Source: Candidatus Bathyarchaeia archaeon (GTDB taxonomy: Archaea; Thermoproteota; Bathyarchaeia; Bathyarchaeales; Bathycorpusculaceae). Taken from it: 64,000 nucleotides of DNA. Position 1 is the stretch's first letter. Every line of letters begins with the position of its first letter. A program made the position numbers and the translations under genes. Below, piece after piece: positions 46,984 through 52,688 of this stretch. Where the stretch lies: assembly GCA_038872535.1 (NCBI GenBank), contig JAVZJY010000001.1:6108-70107 (forward strand), written 5' to 3'. Under the pieces are notes generated by a model. It had not been told where the DNA came from. It made no database searches and saw nothing but the letters and a program-made list of their open reading frames with translations.

Positions 46984-47358
46984 CTACAACCCAAGAATCC
47001 TAAAAGCAAAATACAAAGCCACATAAACCACTGTGGAAATCCCAAAAATCATGGCGATTATTTTTGGAGAAACGGAAATAAAAGGAGTCTCTTCACCTTT
47101 AGGCTGTATCTCATACTCCTTAATTCCATGAGTTTCAGCGTCAACTTTAACCAATGCTATAAACTTTTTCAATTCAACCTCAACAGTGTATATTCCTTCT
47201 TCTAATGAAACCCTCTTGGGCTTTAGGTTTCCCTTATTTCCAATTCTTTTTAGAAATCCAGTAGCAATGGCTGTTACGGTTTCAGCGTTTAACTCTCTTG
47301 TCTGAGGAGTGGTTGATGTAAGGGCGCCTGGGGCTTTTCTCTGAAGAGATGCCGACAA
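46984..47358 (-). CDS. Hypothetical protein with C-terminal TM anchor
   Basis: 124-aa ORF. A soluble beta-rich region is followed by IIAMIFGISTVVYVALYFAF. Confidence 0.45.
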   Translation of the reverse strand: MSASLQRKAPGALTSTTPQTRELNAETVTAIATGFLKRIGNKGNLKPKRVSLEEGIYTVEVELKKFIALVKVDAETHGIKEYEIQPKGEETPFISVSPKIIAMIFGISTVVYVALYFAFRILGL

Positions 47359-47435
47359 TCATGTTGTCTCCTATCTAACTTTATACGAAGCCATTAGGTG
47401 TTTAAAAGGGCATGTGTGTATCATCGTTAACCAAC

Positions 47436-47813
47436 CTAACCAGTCACATTTTTTAGCATACATTGGACTATGTTTTCGCACATCATACATTCTTCAGGGA
47501 TTTTCTCTTTAGTTTTACGTTGACTGAGATATCCAAAATGGTGAGGACATTCTTGTTTCTTCGGCACTTGTAATGTTTCTTTCCCTTTTTGAACATTTAC
47601 CTCTTGAACTTTAACGTCTACTTCAACCTGTGGTTTAGGATTTGTTTCAGTTATGGCAGCTTTTTCCTCCACTGCGATTTCGGTTAAGCAGTAGGGGCAT
47701 GCATCATAAATTCCTGCGTGTCTTGCGTTTAAATTTTCAACTTTGATGGGTGCCGTGAACACTTTTCCGCATGATGGGTTTGGGCAAGTATAGCTTTGAT
47801 TCTTCATTGGCAC
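47436..47813 (-). CDS. Hypothetical zinc-finger protein
   Basis: 125 aa with CPNPSCG...CPYC and CPHH...CMMC...C cysteine clusters. Confidence 0.5.
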   Translation of the reverse strand: MPMKNQSYTCPNPSCGKVFTAPIKVENLNARHAGIYDACPYCLTEIAVEEKAAITETNPKPQVEVDVKVQEVNVQKGKETLQVPKKQECPHHFGYLSQRKTKEKIPEECMMCENIVQCMLKNVTG

Positions 47814-48089
47814 ATCTTTATTTTTTGTGATTATTGACCCTCCTTTAAAATAGAATCGGATTCCGAGTTTATAGTGTTAATGAATCCAGAATTAATATCA
47901 TAGATATCTGCTAACAGTCAAATTGAAACTTATGAAGAAGCACCATTCATGTTTGACCTTTAAGCCTAAACAATGGCATTATAAAGTTTAATAGGTTTCC
48001 AGCAATGCTTACAGAAAATTCATATTTTAAATTCATAATTGTTTTTAATTTTTCAAATTCTAACATTCGCCATATTAAAGGTGAAAAAT

Positions 48090-48278
48090 GTGTATATAGT
48101 ATGGATAAAAATTGACGAAACCTTGCCAAAGATTGAGTTAAAAGGAGAATATCAAACAAGAAGTGAAGCAAAAAAAGCAGCACAACAACTCTTAAGCGAC
48201 ATAAAAGTTGAAATTGTAAATGTTTCAGAAAAGCGAGGTTCCATAAAAGCGTTGGCAACAGCCAAGGCTATGCAATAA
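48090..48278 (+). CDS. Possible 62-aa small protein
   Basis: Within track ORF 48039..48278. GTG 48090 lies 5 nt after AAGGTGA. The product is charged and helical. Confidence 0.35.
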   Translation: MYIVWIKIDETLPKIELKGEYQTRSEAKKAAQQLLSDIKVEIVNVSEKRGSIKALATAKAMQ

Positions 48279-48332: not shown

Positions 48333-51050
48333 TTAGTTTTCCTTGTTTAATTGCCCCTTAGCACTAATCTTTCTAGGCGGTATTAGAACTTGTTCTAGGC
48401 GGTAGCCGTACCTTTTGTAAAACCAACTTTTAACAATTTCAGCTAAAGCTAGGTAGGCGCTGAGTATAGCCGCTAATGCAATGAAGAAGGTTTGCGGAGA
48501 CTTTACAAATTCAAAAATTGTCCCTAGTGGCGTATAGGGCAATATTAATGCGAAGGTTATTATTGCTATACTGCTTAGAATCAAGAGTCTGCTTGGTTTG
48601 CTTTTCCAGAAGGGCGACTTTTTGGTTCTAATAACAAAAATTACCAACGTTTGAGAAGCTAAGGATTCAAGGAACCAAGCAGTTTGGAACAACGGTTCAG
48701 TGGCGTTAAAAATGAAAAGCATTATAAAGAATGTTAAGAAATCGAAAATGGAGCTTACAGGTCCCAAGCACACCATAAACAGTCTGATGAAATGTATATC
48801 CCACCTCTTCGGTTTCTCAATATACTCTTGATCAACCTCATCCATAGGTATTGTTGACTGAGACAAGTCGTAGAGGAGGTTGTTGAGTAATATCTGTGTC
48901 GGACGCATAGGCAGAAACGGCAAGAATAGGGACGCTCCGGCCATGCTGAACATGTTTCCAAAGTTTGAACTCACACCCATCATAATATACTTCATAGTGT
49001 TGCCGAAGGTTTTTCTACCCTCCAAAACCCCGTCGTGAAGTACCGTCAAATCAGTTCGCAAGAGTATAATGTCAGCTGACTCCTTTGCAACGTCAACAGC
49101 ATTATCTACTGATATGCCGACATCCGCACTTCTCATCGGTGGCGCATCGTTTATTCCATCTCCTAAAAACCCTACCACATGGCCGTTATTCTTTAAAGCG
49201 TGTATTATACGGTCTTTTTGGGCTGGAGTGACCCTGCAGAAGACATTGCCCTCTTCAACAACCCTTGCAAGAGCCTCATTGTCCATTTGAGCAATTTCAT
49301 TTCCAGTAACTATCCCTTTAATCTCAAAGCCTAAATATTCACAAACTTTTCGGGTTACCAGTTCATTGTCACCCGTAAGGATTTTCAGTTCGACGCCAGC
49401 GTTTTTCAACAGCTGCAGAGAATCCTTGGCTGTTTCTTTGGGAGGATCCAAGAAGGCGATAAAGCCTAAAAATACCATGTCAAATTCGTCGTTGACGGAA
49501 TAAACAGCCTTTTCTTCTCTTAGGCGTTTGTAGGCAACACCTAAAACTCTAAAACCTTCAGTGCTTAACTCAATGTATTTCTGCTCAATTTTTCTGCGCA
49601 CTTCCTCGGTTATATCGGCAATAGCATTCTCAACTTCGTAATAAGAGCAGATTTTAGCGATTTCTTCTGGGGCGCCTTTAGTAATCATAAATCGTTGATT
49701 TTGGTATTCAACTACTATGGATAGGCGTTTTCGTACGAAATCAAATGGCACCTCATCAATTTTTCCGTATTCCTTCACATCTACGTCTCTAAACTTTAGC
49801 ACTGCCTCGTCAAGGGGACTCCTCAATCCTGTTTGAAAATAACTGTTTAGATACGAGTATAGTATCACTTTCTCGCTTTCATCTCCATTGATGTCCACGT
49901 GAAGGACAAGCTTTATTCTGTTCTCGGTCAGCGTTCCAGTTTTATCTGTGCATAAGACATCCATGCTGCCAAAATTTTGTATGGAGGCTAAACGCTTTAC
50001 AATGACACTTTTCTTAGACATGGCAATAGCGCCTTTAGAAAGATTAACCGAGATTATCATCGGTAAAAGTTCAGGTGTTAAGCCTACAGCCAAAGCCACT
50101 GCAAAAAGAAGCGAGTCAAGCACACTACGCATGTAAAGGGCGTTTATGAAAAAAACAAACAGAACAAGCAAAAGGGTAACTTGCATTATCATATAACCAA
50201 AACTTCTAATTCCCCTTTGAAATTCTGTTTCTGGCTCCCTTGATACAAGCCTCTTCGCAATTTTTCCAAACTCTGTAAGGCTTCCAGTTTTCACCACAAC
50301 GGCAGTTGCTGTTCCACTTACAACAGATGTCCCCATGAAAAGATAGTTACTCCACTCAGTGATTGCAGACTCATATGATTTTAATGGAGCAGCTGTCTTT
50401 TCAACAGGAAACGATTCGCCAGTCAACATGGACTGGTTTACGAACAAATCCTTTGCACTAATTACCCTAGCATCCGCGGGCACTATGTCGCCTGCTGAAA
50501 GGGATATTATGTCGCCCGGAACTATCTCTGAAAGCTTAACCTCACGTTTAACGCCGTCCCTCACCGTGGTTGCTGTGGTTGCCACCCTCTGTTTCAACAT
50601 TTCAGCAGCACTTTCAGCCCTAAACTCTTGATAGAAATCTAAAACGACACTTAACATTACTATTGAGAATATAATAATAGTGGTGATGACATCTCCAAAA
50701 AAGCCTGAAATCAATCCAGCAATTAAAAGGATAATTATTAAAGGACTCTTAAAATGAGAAAGAAAATCAACGATAACTATTCTTTTCTTTTTCTTAACAA
50801 TTTCATTGTAACCATATATTCTTAGGCGTTCCTCAGCTTCTTCGGAAGAGAGCCCTAGCAAAGAAGTGTTTAAACGAGCAAGAAGCTCTTGATCCGGCAG
50901 AGTTAGAAATTCTTCTGTGCTCGGCAGAACCCAACTTGAAATCTCGTTCCCACCTAGTTTCTCTTGGTTTTGTCGCTTCATCATTTTCACCGCCCATTTC
51001 TCTTGAACCACCCTTATAGATGAACCAGCATACTCTACATCCCTCTGCAT
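48333..51050 (-). CDS. mgtA: Magnesium-transporting P-type ATPase (MgtA/MgtB-like)
   Basis: 905 aa with CTDKTGTLT, TGDN and GDGINDAP motifs and an MgtA-like LLNNLLYD TM region. The start may be an internal MMKRQ. Confidence 0.9.
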   Translation of the reverse strand: MQRDVEYAGSSIRVVQEKWAVKMMKRQNQEKLGGNEISSWVLPSTEEFLTLPDQELLARLNTSLLGLSSEEAEERLRIYGYNEIVKKKKRIVIVDFLSHFKSPLIIILLIAGLISGFFGDVITTIIIFSIVMLSVVLDFYQEFRAESAAEMLKQRVATTATTVRDGVKREVKLSEIVPGDIISLSAGDIVPADARVISAKDLFVNQSMLTGESFPVEKTAAPLKSYESAITEWSNYLFMGTSVVSGTATAVVVKTGSLTEFGKIAKRLVSREPETEFQRGIRSFGYMIMQVTLLLVLFVFFINALYMRSVLDSLLFAVALAVGLTPELLPMIISVNLSKGAIAMSKKSVIVKRLASIQNFGSMDVLCTDKTGTLTENRIKLVLHVDINGDESEKVILYSYLNSYFQTGLRSPLDEAVLKFRDVDVKEYGKIDEVPFDFVRKRLSIVVEYQNQRFMITKGAPEEIAKICSYYEVENAIADITEEVRRKIEQKYIELSTEGFRVLGVAYKRLREEKAVYSVNDEFDMVFLGFIAFLDPPKETAKDSLQLLKNAGVELKILTGDNELVTRKVCEYLGFEIKGIVTGNEIAQMDNEALARVVEEGNVFCRVTPAQKDRIIHALKNNGHVVGFLGDGINDAPPMRSADVGISVDNAVDVAKESADIILLRTDLTVLHDGVLEGRKTFGNTMKYIMMGVSSNFGNMFSMAGASLFLPFLPMRPTQILLNNLLYDLSQSTIPMDEVDQEYIEKPKRWDIHFIRLFMVCLGPVSSIFDFLTFFIMLFIFNATEPLFQTAWFLESLASQTLVIFVIRTKKSPFWKSKPSRLLILSSIAIITFALILPYTPLGTIFEFVKSPQTFFIALAAILSAYLALAEIVKSWFYKRYGYRLEQVLIPPRKISAKGQLNKEN

Positions 51051-51151
51051 TCTTAAAATCGTTTCTATAAATCATTTAGCATTAATCTTGCATAGTTATT
51101 TTTGATTGAAAAACCAAAAAGAGAAACTGGCAATTCAACATAACCATTAAA

Positions 51152-51173
51152 CATAAGCGCCGGGGAAGGGATT
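51152..51173 (-). repeat. Direct repeat copy (displaced tRNA-Ser 3' fragment, att-like)
   Basis: cataagcgccggggaagggatt is identical to 52563..52584. The similarity continues for 5 more nt with 2 mismatches. Confidence 0.85.
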
Positions 51174-51284
51174 TCAACATCAATTTACCAGTAAACGATG
51201 ATCTGCATTTAACAATTCGCACATGTTAGATGCTCTTCCAATAAACAAATTGTTAGATACCAAGTATTCCCTTCATTTTTGCTA

Positions 51285-52301
51285 TCATTGTTTAGATGGG
51301 ACTTCAAATAAGTTTTTGCACGGAGGGCTAAAAGCTTCAACTTTATTCTTGCGACGCGCAAAAGGCGCGACTCTTTTTGCAACTTTAAACATTCTAAGCC
51401 ATTCCGTATCAGATAAAAACAATCCTGCGTATGCTCCGGAGTTGCAAGCTATTCCACATCTTTCGCATATGGGTTTGATTCCATTCTCGTCTGTGTTAGA
51501 TATAACGCAAGATTGTTTTGTTTTGCCGCTGCTATCCAAATTTACAAAAAGCCAGTTTGGGCAAGTTGCAGTCCATTTTCCATCTCTGAATAGGTTCAGT
51601 TGCTTCGATGTGTTAGCAATAAAATCCGGATATTTTTCTTTTATTTTTAGTAACTTATCAATGGTGTCGTTTCTCAGCTTTCCGTACGGCAGCCACAATT
51701 TATCATCATAAGAAAAAGGTGTATGAAATTGAAATGTGAAAGCTCTGGCGAAACTGTACCATTCATTGACAACATCCTCGACGCATCCATAGTTTAAACT
51801 GTTTATCGTCATGTTAATGACCACATTCACTTCTGGATGGTCAAGAACGTTTTGTTTCACCTTCCTATATATTCCTACGCCTCTAATTGCGTCGTGAATA
51901 CTTTCTATTCCATCTATTGAAATGAAATATCCTGCACCAAAATCGACCAATGGCAACGTTCCATTTGTCACTATAGTGACATAGCGCCATTTCATCTCAC
52001 TTATAATGGCCTCAATAACATCTGGTCTAAGAAGTGGTTCGCCGCCTGTTAAACTAATGGATATTACATCGTTTTCTATGAATTTTTCTCTTACGACATT
52101 TCTCCATTCATCAGCACTTAATTCTTTGCGCGGCGTCCTGTTCAGCCACCAGTAGCAATGTTTACATTTTAGATTGCAAAAATTTGTAATGTCGGCAGAA
52201 CCAAATATGGGCAATTTTTTCTTTAAATATTTTATTTGAATTATTTTAGAAGCAACTTTTGTAACGCCAACTAGTTTTTTCAAATCGAAAGACCCGCACA
52301 T
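51285..52301 (-). CDS. Radical SAM protein with C-terminal Cys-rich (auxiliary-cluster-like) region
   Basis: 338 aa with the CNLKCKHCYW (CxxxCxxC) motif, the SLTGGEPLL motif, and a C-terminal C..W...C....CERCGIAC cluster. Confidence 0.85.
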   Translation of the reverse strand: MCGSFDLKKLVGVTKVASKIIQIKYLKKKLPIFGSADITNFCNLKCKHCYWWLNRTPRKELSADEWRNVVREKFIENDVISISLTGGEPLLRPDVIEAIISEMKWRYVTIVTNGTLPLVDFGAGYFISIDGIESIHDAIRGVGIYRKVKQNVLDHPEVNVVINMTINSLNYGCVEDVVNEWYSFARAFTFQFHTPFSYDDKLWLPYGKLRNDTIDKLLKIKEKYPDFIANTSKQLNLFRDGKWTATCPNWLFVNLDSSGKTKQSCVISNTDENGIKPICERCGIACNSGAYAGLFLSDTEWLRMFKVAKRVAPFARRKNKVEAFSPPCKNLFEVPSKQ

Positions 52302-52368
52302 GACTAATTATTTACTTTATTGTCCTTTTCATTTTAGAATTTCTGGTAAAATGTTTCAAGAATGATAT

Positions 52369-52482
52369 TTACCTTCTCTTCTGCTTCTTTCCACCACGAG
52401 CTCTCCTAGTTTGATGCCCCCTCGCTTTGTCACGACGAGCGCTCTCTTTGGCCTTTCTACGAGAATCCTGTTCTCTACCCAT
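52369..52482 (-). CDS. Possible 37-aa highly basic small protein (below ORF-track cutoff)
   Basis: ATG..TAA encodes MGREQDSRRKAKESARRDKARGHQTRRARGGKKQKRR. A GTGAGGG SD-like motif lies 4 nt upstream. The ORF is locally GC-richer than its flanks. Confidence 0.45.
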   Translation of the reverse strand: MGREQDSRRKAKESARRDKARGHQTRRARGGKKQKRR

Positions 52483-52562
52483 GTTCCCTCACGTCATCTC
52501 TCTCAAAATATCAATAGCATCCTTTCCAAAAAACCTTCTGTTAAAATAGATTAATGGTTTGT

Positions 52563-52584
52563 CATAAGCGCCGGGGAAGGGATT
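52563..52584 (-). repeat. Direct repeat copy overlapping the intact tRNA-Ser 3' end
   Basis: cataagcgccggggaagggatt covers the discriminator, the acceptor 3' strand, part of the T-stem, and 6 nt of 3' flank. Confidence 0.85.
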
Positions 52585-52688
52585 CGAACCCTTGCGAGCC
52601 TGAAGGCTCACTGGCTTACCTGTTTTTATCCAGCCCTTCTTTCAATTTGATCTCGAGGCCAGCGCGTTAACCGCTCCGCCACCCCGGC
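52569..52688 (-). tRNA. tRNA-Ser (anticodon CGA) with a ~35-nt intron at the canonical 37/38 position
   Basis: The reverse complement reads GCCGGGGTGGCGGAGCGGTTAACGCGCTGGCCTCGAG[ATCAAATTGAAAGAAGGGCTGGATAAAAACAGGTA]AGCCAGTGAGCCTTCAGGCTCGCAAGGGTTCGAATCCCTTCCCCGGCG. It has a long variable arm, and the anticodon stem CTGGC/GCCAG closes only if the insert is removed. Confidence 0.85.

Follow-up and report, generated by a model that had tools for sequence, protein, structure and literature searches.

Two genes of an uncultured archaeon, one for a radical S-adenosylmethionine (SAM) enzyme and one of 37 codons for a very basic protein, lie between two identical copies of the 3' end of a tRNA-Ser gene. 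Does this arrangement mark an integrated element, and do the two genes act together? The locus belongs to a stretch of 64,000 nucleotides from a Candidatus Bathyarchaeia archaeon (contig JAVZJY010000001.1, positions 6,108 to 70,107), here called the window. An earlier reading of its sequence, the original prediction, had taken the pair, which we call the cassette, for a remnant or miniature integrated element carrying a possible peptide-maturation system. We compared the locus with about 200 related Bathyarchaeia loci. Empty sites, other occupants of the same site, an integrase-bearing element, conserved attachment (att) arms and a low synonymous divergence of the cassette speak for the first of these proposals. 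We consider it likely that the cassette is a remnant or miniature element, non-autonomous and flanked by att sites, at a tRNA-Ser hotspot, placed in tandem with an islet that carries mgtA. The peptide-maturation proposal was not supported.

The repeat, its tRNA target and the element arm

The 22-mer CATAAGCGCCGGGGAAGGGATT was found exactly twice on the forward strand of the window, at 51152-51173 and at 52563-52584, as had been reported. None of 100 dinucleotide-preserving shuffles yielded a 22-bp repeat match. With up to three mismatches allowed, the window contained no third copy, nor did it contain tRNA 3'-end fragments of 12 nt or more elsewhere. The repeat is real and not a product of chance. 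Overlapping the second copy is an intact, intron-containing tRNA gene (52569..52688, minus strand; Rfam RF00005, 50.3 bits). Its anticodon loop reads CUCGAGA, and it is therefore a tRNA-Ser(CGA), a call that we made from the Rfam match and our reading of the loop. ARAGORN missed the gene in default mode; with introns allowed it found the tRNA and often misnamed it Thr, Pro or Ala. Given the Rfam coordinates, the second repeat copy therefore comprises the last 16 nt of the tRNA, from the T-loop AAT to the discriminator, followed by 6 nt of flank, in agreement with the earlier description. Orthologous tRNA-Ser(CGA) genes were present in L002, L004-L011 and 120 metagenome loci. This tRNA gene is the integration target (attB), its 3' end now being supplied by the proximal att core (attL, 52563..52584, minus strand). 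The distal copy (51152..51173, minus strand), an exact repeat, is the attR core, a displaced copy of the tRNA 3' end that forms the junction with the older mgtA islet.

The 1389-nt interval between the cores (51174-52562) contains the radical SAM open reading frame (ORF; 51285..52301) and, 67 nt upstream of it, the 37-codon ORF (52369..52482), both on the minus strand. The original prediction had described this pair correctly, and erred in holding that the interval contains nothing else. A conserved non-coding remnant of 77 nt (51212..51288, minus strand) and a conserved element arm (51174..51195, minus strand) are also present. By blastn the remnant is 86-87% identical to L005:9337-9413 and L007:2069-2145, which lie immediately upstream of a ribbon-helix-helix (RHH) gene that the window lacks. 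In L005 this gene matches RHH_6, and its start region in L005 and L007 has an apparent similarity to the window arm.

The arm, on the element side of attR, consists of the palindromic 12-mer TTTACTGGTAAA (51184-51195) and the 10-nt spacer TTGATGTTGA (51174-51183). In the sense of the tRNA, TTTACTGGTAAA-TTGATGTTGA precedes the distal repeat. A near-identical arm, TTTACTGGTAAA-TTGGTGCTGA-AATCCCTTCCCCGGCGC, precedes the distal tRNA fragment in L103, L132, L138, L150 (twice), L155/L168, L159 (twice), L190 and L192. The 44-bp unit of TTTACTGGTAAA, 10 nt and core is thus common to at least 10 islands with unrelated cargo, and the distal tRNA fragments of these islands all begin at one T-loop position, AATCCC. 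On the attL side, TTTACTGGTAAA lies directly 3' of the intact tRNA in L193, L146 and L181, and likewise in L206. The arm before the distal core and the palindrome behind the intact tRNA therefore suggest an attP made up of palindrome, 10 nt, core, about 3 nt and palindrome. The right arm of the window differs from the consensus at 2 of 22 positions, and both att sites of the window look intact. The letters tcaac beside the first repeat copy, which had been taken for a decaying tRNA fragment, are part of this conserved arm instead.

Several loci carry more than one island. In L150 and L159, two or three arm-plus-core copies stand in series behind one tRNA-Ser, forming tandem island arrays; the copies lie at +3811 and +6454 from the tRNA start in L150 and at +5434, +6686 and +12457 in L159. 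One island of these arrays bears a different radical SAM gene, of 354 aa. Decayed distal tRNA fragments are still visible in L001 and L005. Both of these relics have the variant ACCTAT and a downstream GTTTA, which suggests that they share a common descent.

One occupant of the same site is an intact element. In L193 it comprises, next to the tRNA-Ser, an RHH-like gene, the gene for a tyrosine recombinase of 322-337 aa, in which Phage_integrase (90 bits) and a SAM-like N-terminal domain were recognized, and over 10 kb of additional genes. Nearly the same element is present in L146, and the island of L117 retains an integrase fragment. An IMG/VR contig, L206 (UViG_3300009775_000455), shares the RHH-like first gene and encodes an integrase of 55% identity. 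Both lie beside a different tRNA, whose anticodon loop reads GTG (L206:300-420) and which is directly followed by TTTACCAGTAAT. Other tRNAs are thus targeted by some members of the element family. No integrase gene turned up between the cores (51174-52562), elsewhere in the window or at any of the loci that bear the cassette, and the cassette is therefore non-autonomous.

States of the slot and horizontal spread of the cassette

We scanned metagenome contigs with the 5' half of tRNA-Ser(CGA) and obtained the 120 loci mentioned above, 76 of which had enough downstream sequence to be informative. The first backbone gene past the slot is orf79 (48039..48278 in the window, plus strand), for which tblastn gave positions between +217 and +470, counted from the tRNA start, in 14 loci. 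The slot was empty in 14-16 of the 76 loci, the tRNA being followed by orf79 or the next backbone genes within about 140 nt; the distance between the tRNA 3' end and orf79 in empty sites is about 100-140 nt. The small ORF and radical SAM cassette occupied the slot in 3/76 loci. Other insertions of 1-11 kb preceded orf79 in 18, and 39 had other DNA of at least 1.5 kb with orf79 out of reach. Cargo in the slot further included a pst-phoU operon, Fae-Hps, an epimerase and another radical SAM enzyme. In L190, a complete pst operon with its own PhoU-type regulators stands between the tRNA and an arm-plus-core copy, at +400 to +6100 from the tRNA start; the backbone of this locus already encodes a PhoU-domain protein besides the island copy.

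In the window, the region between the radical SAM gene and orf79 holds the 77-nt segment, the distal repeat and the gene for a 905-aa MgtA-like P-type ATPase, which with its upstream region spans 48333..51151 on the minus strand (Pfam E1-E2_ATPase and related families). The mgtA gene is missing from empty sites, adjoins the tRNA in L179 (77% at the amino acid level) and is also present in L092 (76%). In L179 the upstream region of mgtA and then mgtA itself come immediately after the tRNA, and this region is homologous to the DNA beyond the distal repeat of the window. This is the empty site, with tRNA-Ser directly next to mgtA, that the original prediction had anticipated. In L092 an RHH and RelE-like pair separates the tRNA from mgtA, and the junction carries a decayed tRNA fragment. 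The mgtA islet is thus an earlier insertion in the slot, outside the cassette and part of the same tandem array. The same RHH and RelE-like toxin-antitoxin pair fills the slot of L160 instead of the radical SAM cassette. L160 is the closest backbone relative of the window in our divergence comparison (PolD 85%, PhoU 94% at the amino acid level).

We then compared the number of synonymous substitutions per site (dS) in the radical SAM gene with that in the adjacent backbone genes PolD, PhoU, PNP and DUF429. Against L005, the dS of the radical SAM gene was 0.22 and that of the adjacent backbone genes 0.87-1.13; against L006 the values were 0.29 and 1.1-3.5. Against L004 and L011, dS was 0.24 and 0.31 in the radical SAM gene and saturated in the adjacent backbone genes. 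The cassette dS is 4-10 times below that of its neighbours, and nucleotide identity steps up from about 72% in PNP to 90-98% over the two cassette genes. The cassette also occurs at other tRNA genes with different flanks: tRNA-Ser(GGA) adjoins it in L001 and L019, and in L208 and L003 its neighbour is a third tRNA, by our own reading Arg-UCU with a D-loop intron. These divergence patterns and contexts indicate that the cassette moved horizontally among Bathyarchaeia lineages.

Some further features of the surrounding region deserve mention. In L003 and L208 the cassette lies near IF-2B, tRNA-intron endonuclease and HisRS genes. The radical SAM homologue of Odinarchaeum yellowstonii (L084) is located within 7 kb of the same three genes, which could reflect chance or an old linkage. 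The region 3' of the radical SAM gene is variable. It holds the P-type MgtA-like ATPase in the window (48333-51050) versus an MgtE channel and a PhoU/TrkA_C protein in L002 and L015 (L002:7484-9959), so that magnesium-transport genes of different kinds occupy the same region. Beyond orf79, at 46984-47813, the window carries orf125, which is zinc-ribbon-like (CxxC...CxxC), and orf124. Both are without a Pfam match and are kept beside orf79 in many related loci at 40-70% identity.

The radical SAM enzyme and the small gene

The radical SAM protein has 338 aa and the motif CNLKCKHC (Pfam PF04055). In an alignment of 18 sequences, the CxxxCxxC cysteines (C42, C46, C49) and the C-terminal C247, C265, C279 and C282 were invariant. 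Pfam returned the generic Radical_SAM and Fer4_12 families only. The best-scoring curated family was NCBIfam TIGR03961, which covered residues 27-270 and gave 84 bits, the cut-off being 306. With a score so far below the cut-off we rejected membership and regard the protein as a distant relative. TIGR03961 itself ('PTO1314 family radical SAM protein') is a hypothetical equivalog without assigned function. We also rejected a defence role as a prokaryotic viperin (pVip): the PADLOC match was confined to the N-terminal core (residues 38-116, 47 bits), and the NCBIfam viperin model scored 42.5 bits against a cut-off of 180.

In the AlphaFold2 (AF2) model (predicted local distance difference test score, pLDDT, 84.5; below 50 for residues 310-338), a single helix of residues 7-26 precedes a core that starts at about residue 33. 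Neither the model nor Pfam revealed a ribosomally synthesized and post-translationally modified peptide (RiPP) recognition element (RRE) or another N-terminal peptide-recognition domain. The best Foldseek matches were SkfB, CteB, SuiB, BlsE and anSME, at a TM score of about 0.55. Over the Foldseek and PDB-profile searches together, the closest solved structures were these five and viperin, with TM scores of about 0.5-0.6; for the five, TM scores were only about 0.5-0.58 and identity was 16-24%. The protein is thus predicted to be a SPASM/twitch-type enzyme without a peptide-recognition domain. Like SkfB, CteB, SuiB, anSME and BlsE, it has the CxxxCxxC core and a C-terminal auxiliary-cluster region of the form C-x11-G-x5-C ... 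C-x2-C-x3-C; unlike them, it lacks the N-terminal peptide-binding domain and has only four invariant auxiliary cysteines. The original prediction had left the subfamily to a profile search. The SPASM/twitch type is favoured by Foldseek and the cysteine motifs, while the profile scores for TIGR03961 and viperin place the protein in neither family. At the C-terminus (51285-51340), relatives end in ...VAPFKNKVEAF*. The window gene has lost this stop and reads through for about 17 codons (SPPCKNLFEVPSKQ), at a pLDDT below 50.

The enzyme belongs to a large archaeal family: at E <= 0.001 it is matched by 1933 proteins, and at least 502 archaeal GTDB species genomes encode a relative. Identity to the window enzyme falls from 80-91% within one Bathyarchaeia subclade to 65-71% among Odin-, Hod- and Promethearchaeota. 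Other Bathyarchaeia have relatives at about 53%, and those of Thermoplasmatota and Nitrososphaerales reach 43-50%. No conserved partner was found at the Odinarchaeum and Nitrosocaldaceae loci or in a clustering of neighbours from 69 distant loci, where the commonest neighbour was present in 11/69. The family is mostly a stand-alone chromosomal gene. Several Nitrososphaerales genomes have two family paralogues of about 46-48% identity: L020 and L034 on one Ca. Nitrosocosmicus agrestis contig, L045/L050 and L028/L083.

The 37-codon gene encodes the very basic protein MGREQDSRRKAKESARRDKARGHQTRRARGGKKQKRR, is co-oriented with the radical SAM gene and lies directly upstream of it. In nine intact orthologues, the variable columns were distributed 6/6/28 by codon position, and the ratio of nonsynonymous to synonymous rates (dN/dS) was about 0.02-0.15. 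This pattern shows that the gene is real and under strong purifying selection, though it is restricted to one lineage. A search of 5.8 billion proteins returned only 16 clusters, all 81-100% identical and unnamed, and the gene is confined to one Bathyarchaeia subclade. Pfam, NCBIfam and PADLOC gave no match for the small protein. We considered a small ribosomal protein (eL41, eS30 or eL29) and dropped this identity, there being no profile match and the homologues being confined to the cassette.

At about 17 loci the small gene is always directly upstream of the radical SAM gene, co-oriented and at a distance of 11-70 nt, and the two are probably co-transcribed. The enzyme gene is intact at loci where the small gene is deleted (L007) or frameshifted (L008, L121 and L019). 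In L010, from a Bathyarchaeales metagenome-assembled genome (MAG), the small ORF keeps only its first 22 codons, which run in frame into the N-terminus of the enzyme (MSREQDSRRKAKESARRSKARG-FSSLKKLVG..., L010:4938-5060); its C-terminal half and the spacer are deleted. Conversely, L209-L211 have a copy of the small gene with a frameshifted C-terminus (P0133, 51 aa; L209:8001-8156) and no radical SAM gene. This copy is flanked by a gene for ribosomal protein L35Ae on one side and by an HTH_45 gene on the other. The original prediction had pointed to homologous radical SAM genes elsewhere as a place to look for the peptide. No such peptide was found upstream of enzyme homologues of 45-71% identity in Asgard, Thermoplasmatota, Nitrososphaerales and other Bathyarchaeia, in keeping with its restriction to one subclade. 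In L023, a locus without a tRNA, the small ORF is immediately preceded by about 330 nt of G+C-rich and apparently structured sequence (L023:4390-4720). Rfam at the gathering threshold returned nothing for this stretch, which may be an unannotated RNA gene.

Origin of the cassette and comparison with known systems

How could the cassette have come to stand here? On our reading, the tRNA-Ser(CGA) 3' end serves as attB for Bathyarchaeia integrative elements that use a tyrosine recombinase, and their insertions pile up in tandem between the tRNA and orf79. The order in the window is tRNA, cassette, attR, mgtA islet (the older insertion) and orf79. The comparison of loci shows the site, its arms, the empty and alternative states of the slot and the horizontal spread, whereas the entry of this particular cassette through an integrase is inferred. 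The cassette would have come in through site-specific recombination somewhere in the last 16 nt of the tRNA. The att copy of the cassette would have rebuilt the tRNA, and the original 3' end would have been pushed outward to become the distal repeat, joined to the TTTACTGGTAAA-N10-core arm. The cassette, with its small basic protein gene, radical SAM gene and what appears to be a promoter remnant of an RHH gene, may be what was left of a larger element after deletion, or it may have been moved by an integrase acting in trans. Its enzyme is an extra copy from a widespread archaeal radical SAM family.

Several observations weigh against this proposal, and some of them fit an alternative in which site-specific recombination no longer moves the cassette or never did so, the att copy being the old scar of a larger element. 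It could instead have spread by homologous recombination through the conserved tRNA and flanks, anchored on the tRNA/PNP side and the islet/orf79 side, in an allelic replacement of island content. Neither the cassette nor any cassette-bearing locus has an integrase, and for the window cassette we observed neither an excised circle nor a free attP form nor an active integrase. In IMG/VR, neither the tRNA core nor the attP-like arm joined to the core had a match. The attL-side flank of the window, ACAAACCATTAAT, is degenerate, matching the palindromic arm weakly at 7/12 positions, and attL may therefore not be fully functional. The distal repeat is missing in the cassette loci L002, L015, L196, L004 and L006; in the first three, orf79 directly follows the radical SAM gene, and the cassette behaves like a fixed chromosomal gene pair. 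The block of high identity to L004, L005, L006 and L011 consists mainly of the two genes, with an indel in the left intergenic region. In G+C content the cassette (0.374) is close to the window as a whole (0.404). The family being mostly chromosomal and stand-alone, the radical SAM gene would have been captured and is not typical cargo of mobile elements. However, the two cores of the window are identical at 22/22 positions and its right arm is nearly so to the consensus, which is unexpected for an old scar that is not under selection, and the scar relics in L001 and L005 are visibly decayed. Homologous recombination anchored in the flanks also does not explain the cassette at two other tRNA genes, where both flanks differ. 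We regard this alternative as possible but not probable. That the two genes are an ordinary, vertically inherited pair beside a tRNA, with a repeat that arose by chance or local duplication, is highly improbable. The order PolD-DUF429-PhoU-PNP-tRNA-small ORF-radical SAM is indeed common to at least eight genome loci, and the cassette-bearing genome contigs share this backbone, in which PolD is the small subunit. However, the chance expectation for the repeat is zero, it is flanked by a conserved element arm, empty sites outnumber occupied ones, the closest backbone relative holds a different cassette and the cassette dS is too low relative to its neighbours.

The remaining alternative concerns the cargo. 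The radical SAM enzyme could act on the small basic protein, which would then be a RiPP-like precursor or a small nucleic-acid-binding protein that becomes modified, the pair forming a functional two-component system. The constant position and orientation of the small gene, its strong purifying selection, the closest solved structures (the peptide-modifying SkfB, CteB, SuiB and anSME) and the occurrence of the pair in three tRNA contexts are consistent with this. Against it, the enzyme core begins at about residue 33 with no RRE or other peptide-binding domain before it, and homologues of 45-71% identity have neither the peptide upstream nor a conserved neighbour. The losses in L007, L008, L121 and L019 and the 22-codon fusion in L010 left the enzyme intact, and the peptide persists without the enzyme in L209-L211. 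The peptide has no cysteine and no evident leader and core organization. We therefore think it unlikely that the small protein is the substrate, and the RiPP-type cargo of the original prediction is not supported, given the missing recognition domain, the lack of peptide-enzyme co-occurrence across the family and the disrupted small ORFs. Probable co-transcription and purifying selection leave a small chance that the two genes are functionally linked. It is conceivable, though we doubt it, that they form a module in which the enzyme modifies the protein, or the pair acts on nucleic acid or ribosomes, and that this module is a miniature cassette hopping between tRNA genes (Ser-CGA, Ser-GGA and the third) by means of integrases in trans. 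If so, the tRNA-Ser slot would be an integron-style platform for single-function cassettes in Bathyarchaeia.

With the cassette read as an att-flanked remnant or miniature element, the locus provides a concrete att site for Bathyarchaeia integrative elements, a 16-17-nt tRNA-Ser core flanked by TTTACTGGTAAA, in a group that is abundant and uncultured and whose mobile elements are barely charted. One tRNA-Ser locus would act as a natural slot for single-function cargo, including magnesium and phosphate transporters, toxin-antitoxin pairs, Fae-Hps and radical SAM enzymes. Knowing this slot helps in reading pangenome variation in MAGs and flags tRNA-adjacent genes as possibly foreign; in the long term it could serve as a landing site for genetic tools. 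The locus also highlights a large radical SAM family of archaea, conserved at 45-90% identity across four phyla and with no known function.

Integrated elements with integrases of the archaeal non-partitioning, pNOB8 type include the integrated plasmids of Sulfolobus, the TKV/pTN3-like elements of Thermococcales and the integrated elements of Thaumarchaeota. As in tRNA-targeting tyrosine-recombinase elements, insertion at our locus is at a tRNA 3' end, attL and attR are duplicated and the tRNA would be rebuilt from the element copy. The full-size occupant in L193 has its integrase by attL, and tandem arrays, decayed relics and empty sites are present. The cassette itself combines tRNA 3'-end repeats, an intact tRNA, an empty site in relatives and signs of horizontal acquisition, and does not encode a recombinase. 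Unlike such elements, the window unit measures only 1.39 kb and has neither an integrase nor another mobility gene. Proviruses with tyrosine integrases have been reported from Bathyarchaeia (PMC10848311). A limited literature search found no description of the present att site (16-17-nt tRNA-Ser core, 12-bp palindromic arms) or of the hotspot.

The closest described concept is the streptococcal cis-mobilizable element (CIME). CIMEs and tandem accretion have been described at the sites of streptococcal integrative and conjugative elements and integrative and mobilizable elements (PMC5704250), and the category is recognized in ICEberg 2.0 (PMC6323972). Like CIMEs, the cassette is flanked by att sites, lacks recombination and transfer genes and stands in tandem at one attachment site: it has attL and attR cores, a right arm and the tandem mgtA islet, with no mobility genes. 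CIMEs are thought to be deletion derivatives of larger elements that move only with the help of a related integrase, and by analogy the same may hold for the window cassette. Unlike streptococcal CIMEs, it resides in an archaeal host with no known conjugation context, and any mobilization in trans or in cis would be our extrapolation from sequence. The cassette is an att-flanked mini element of a well-known kind, and its interest lies mainly in the well-defined att architecture and hotspot of an uncultured archaeal class and in an uncharacterized but widespread radical SAM family.

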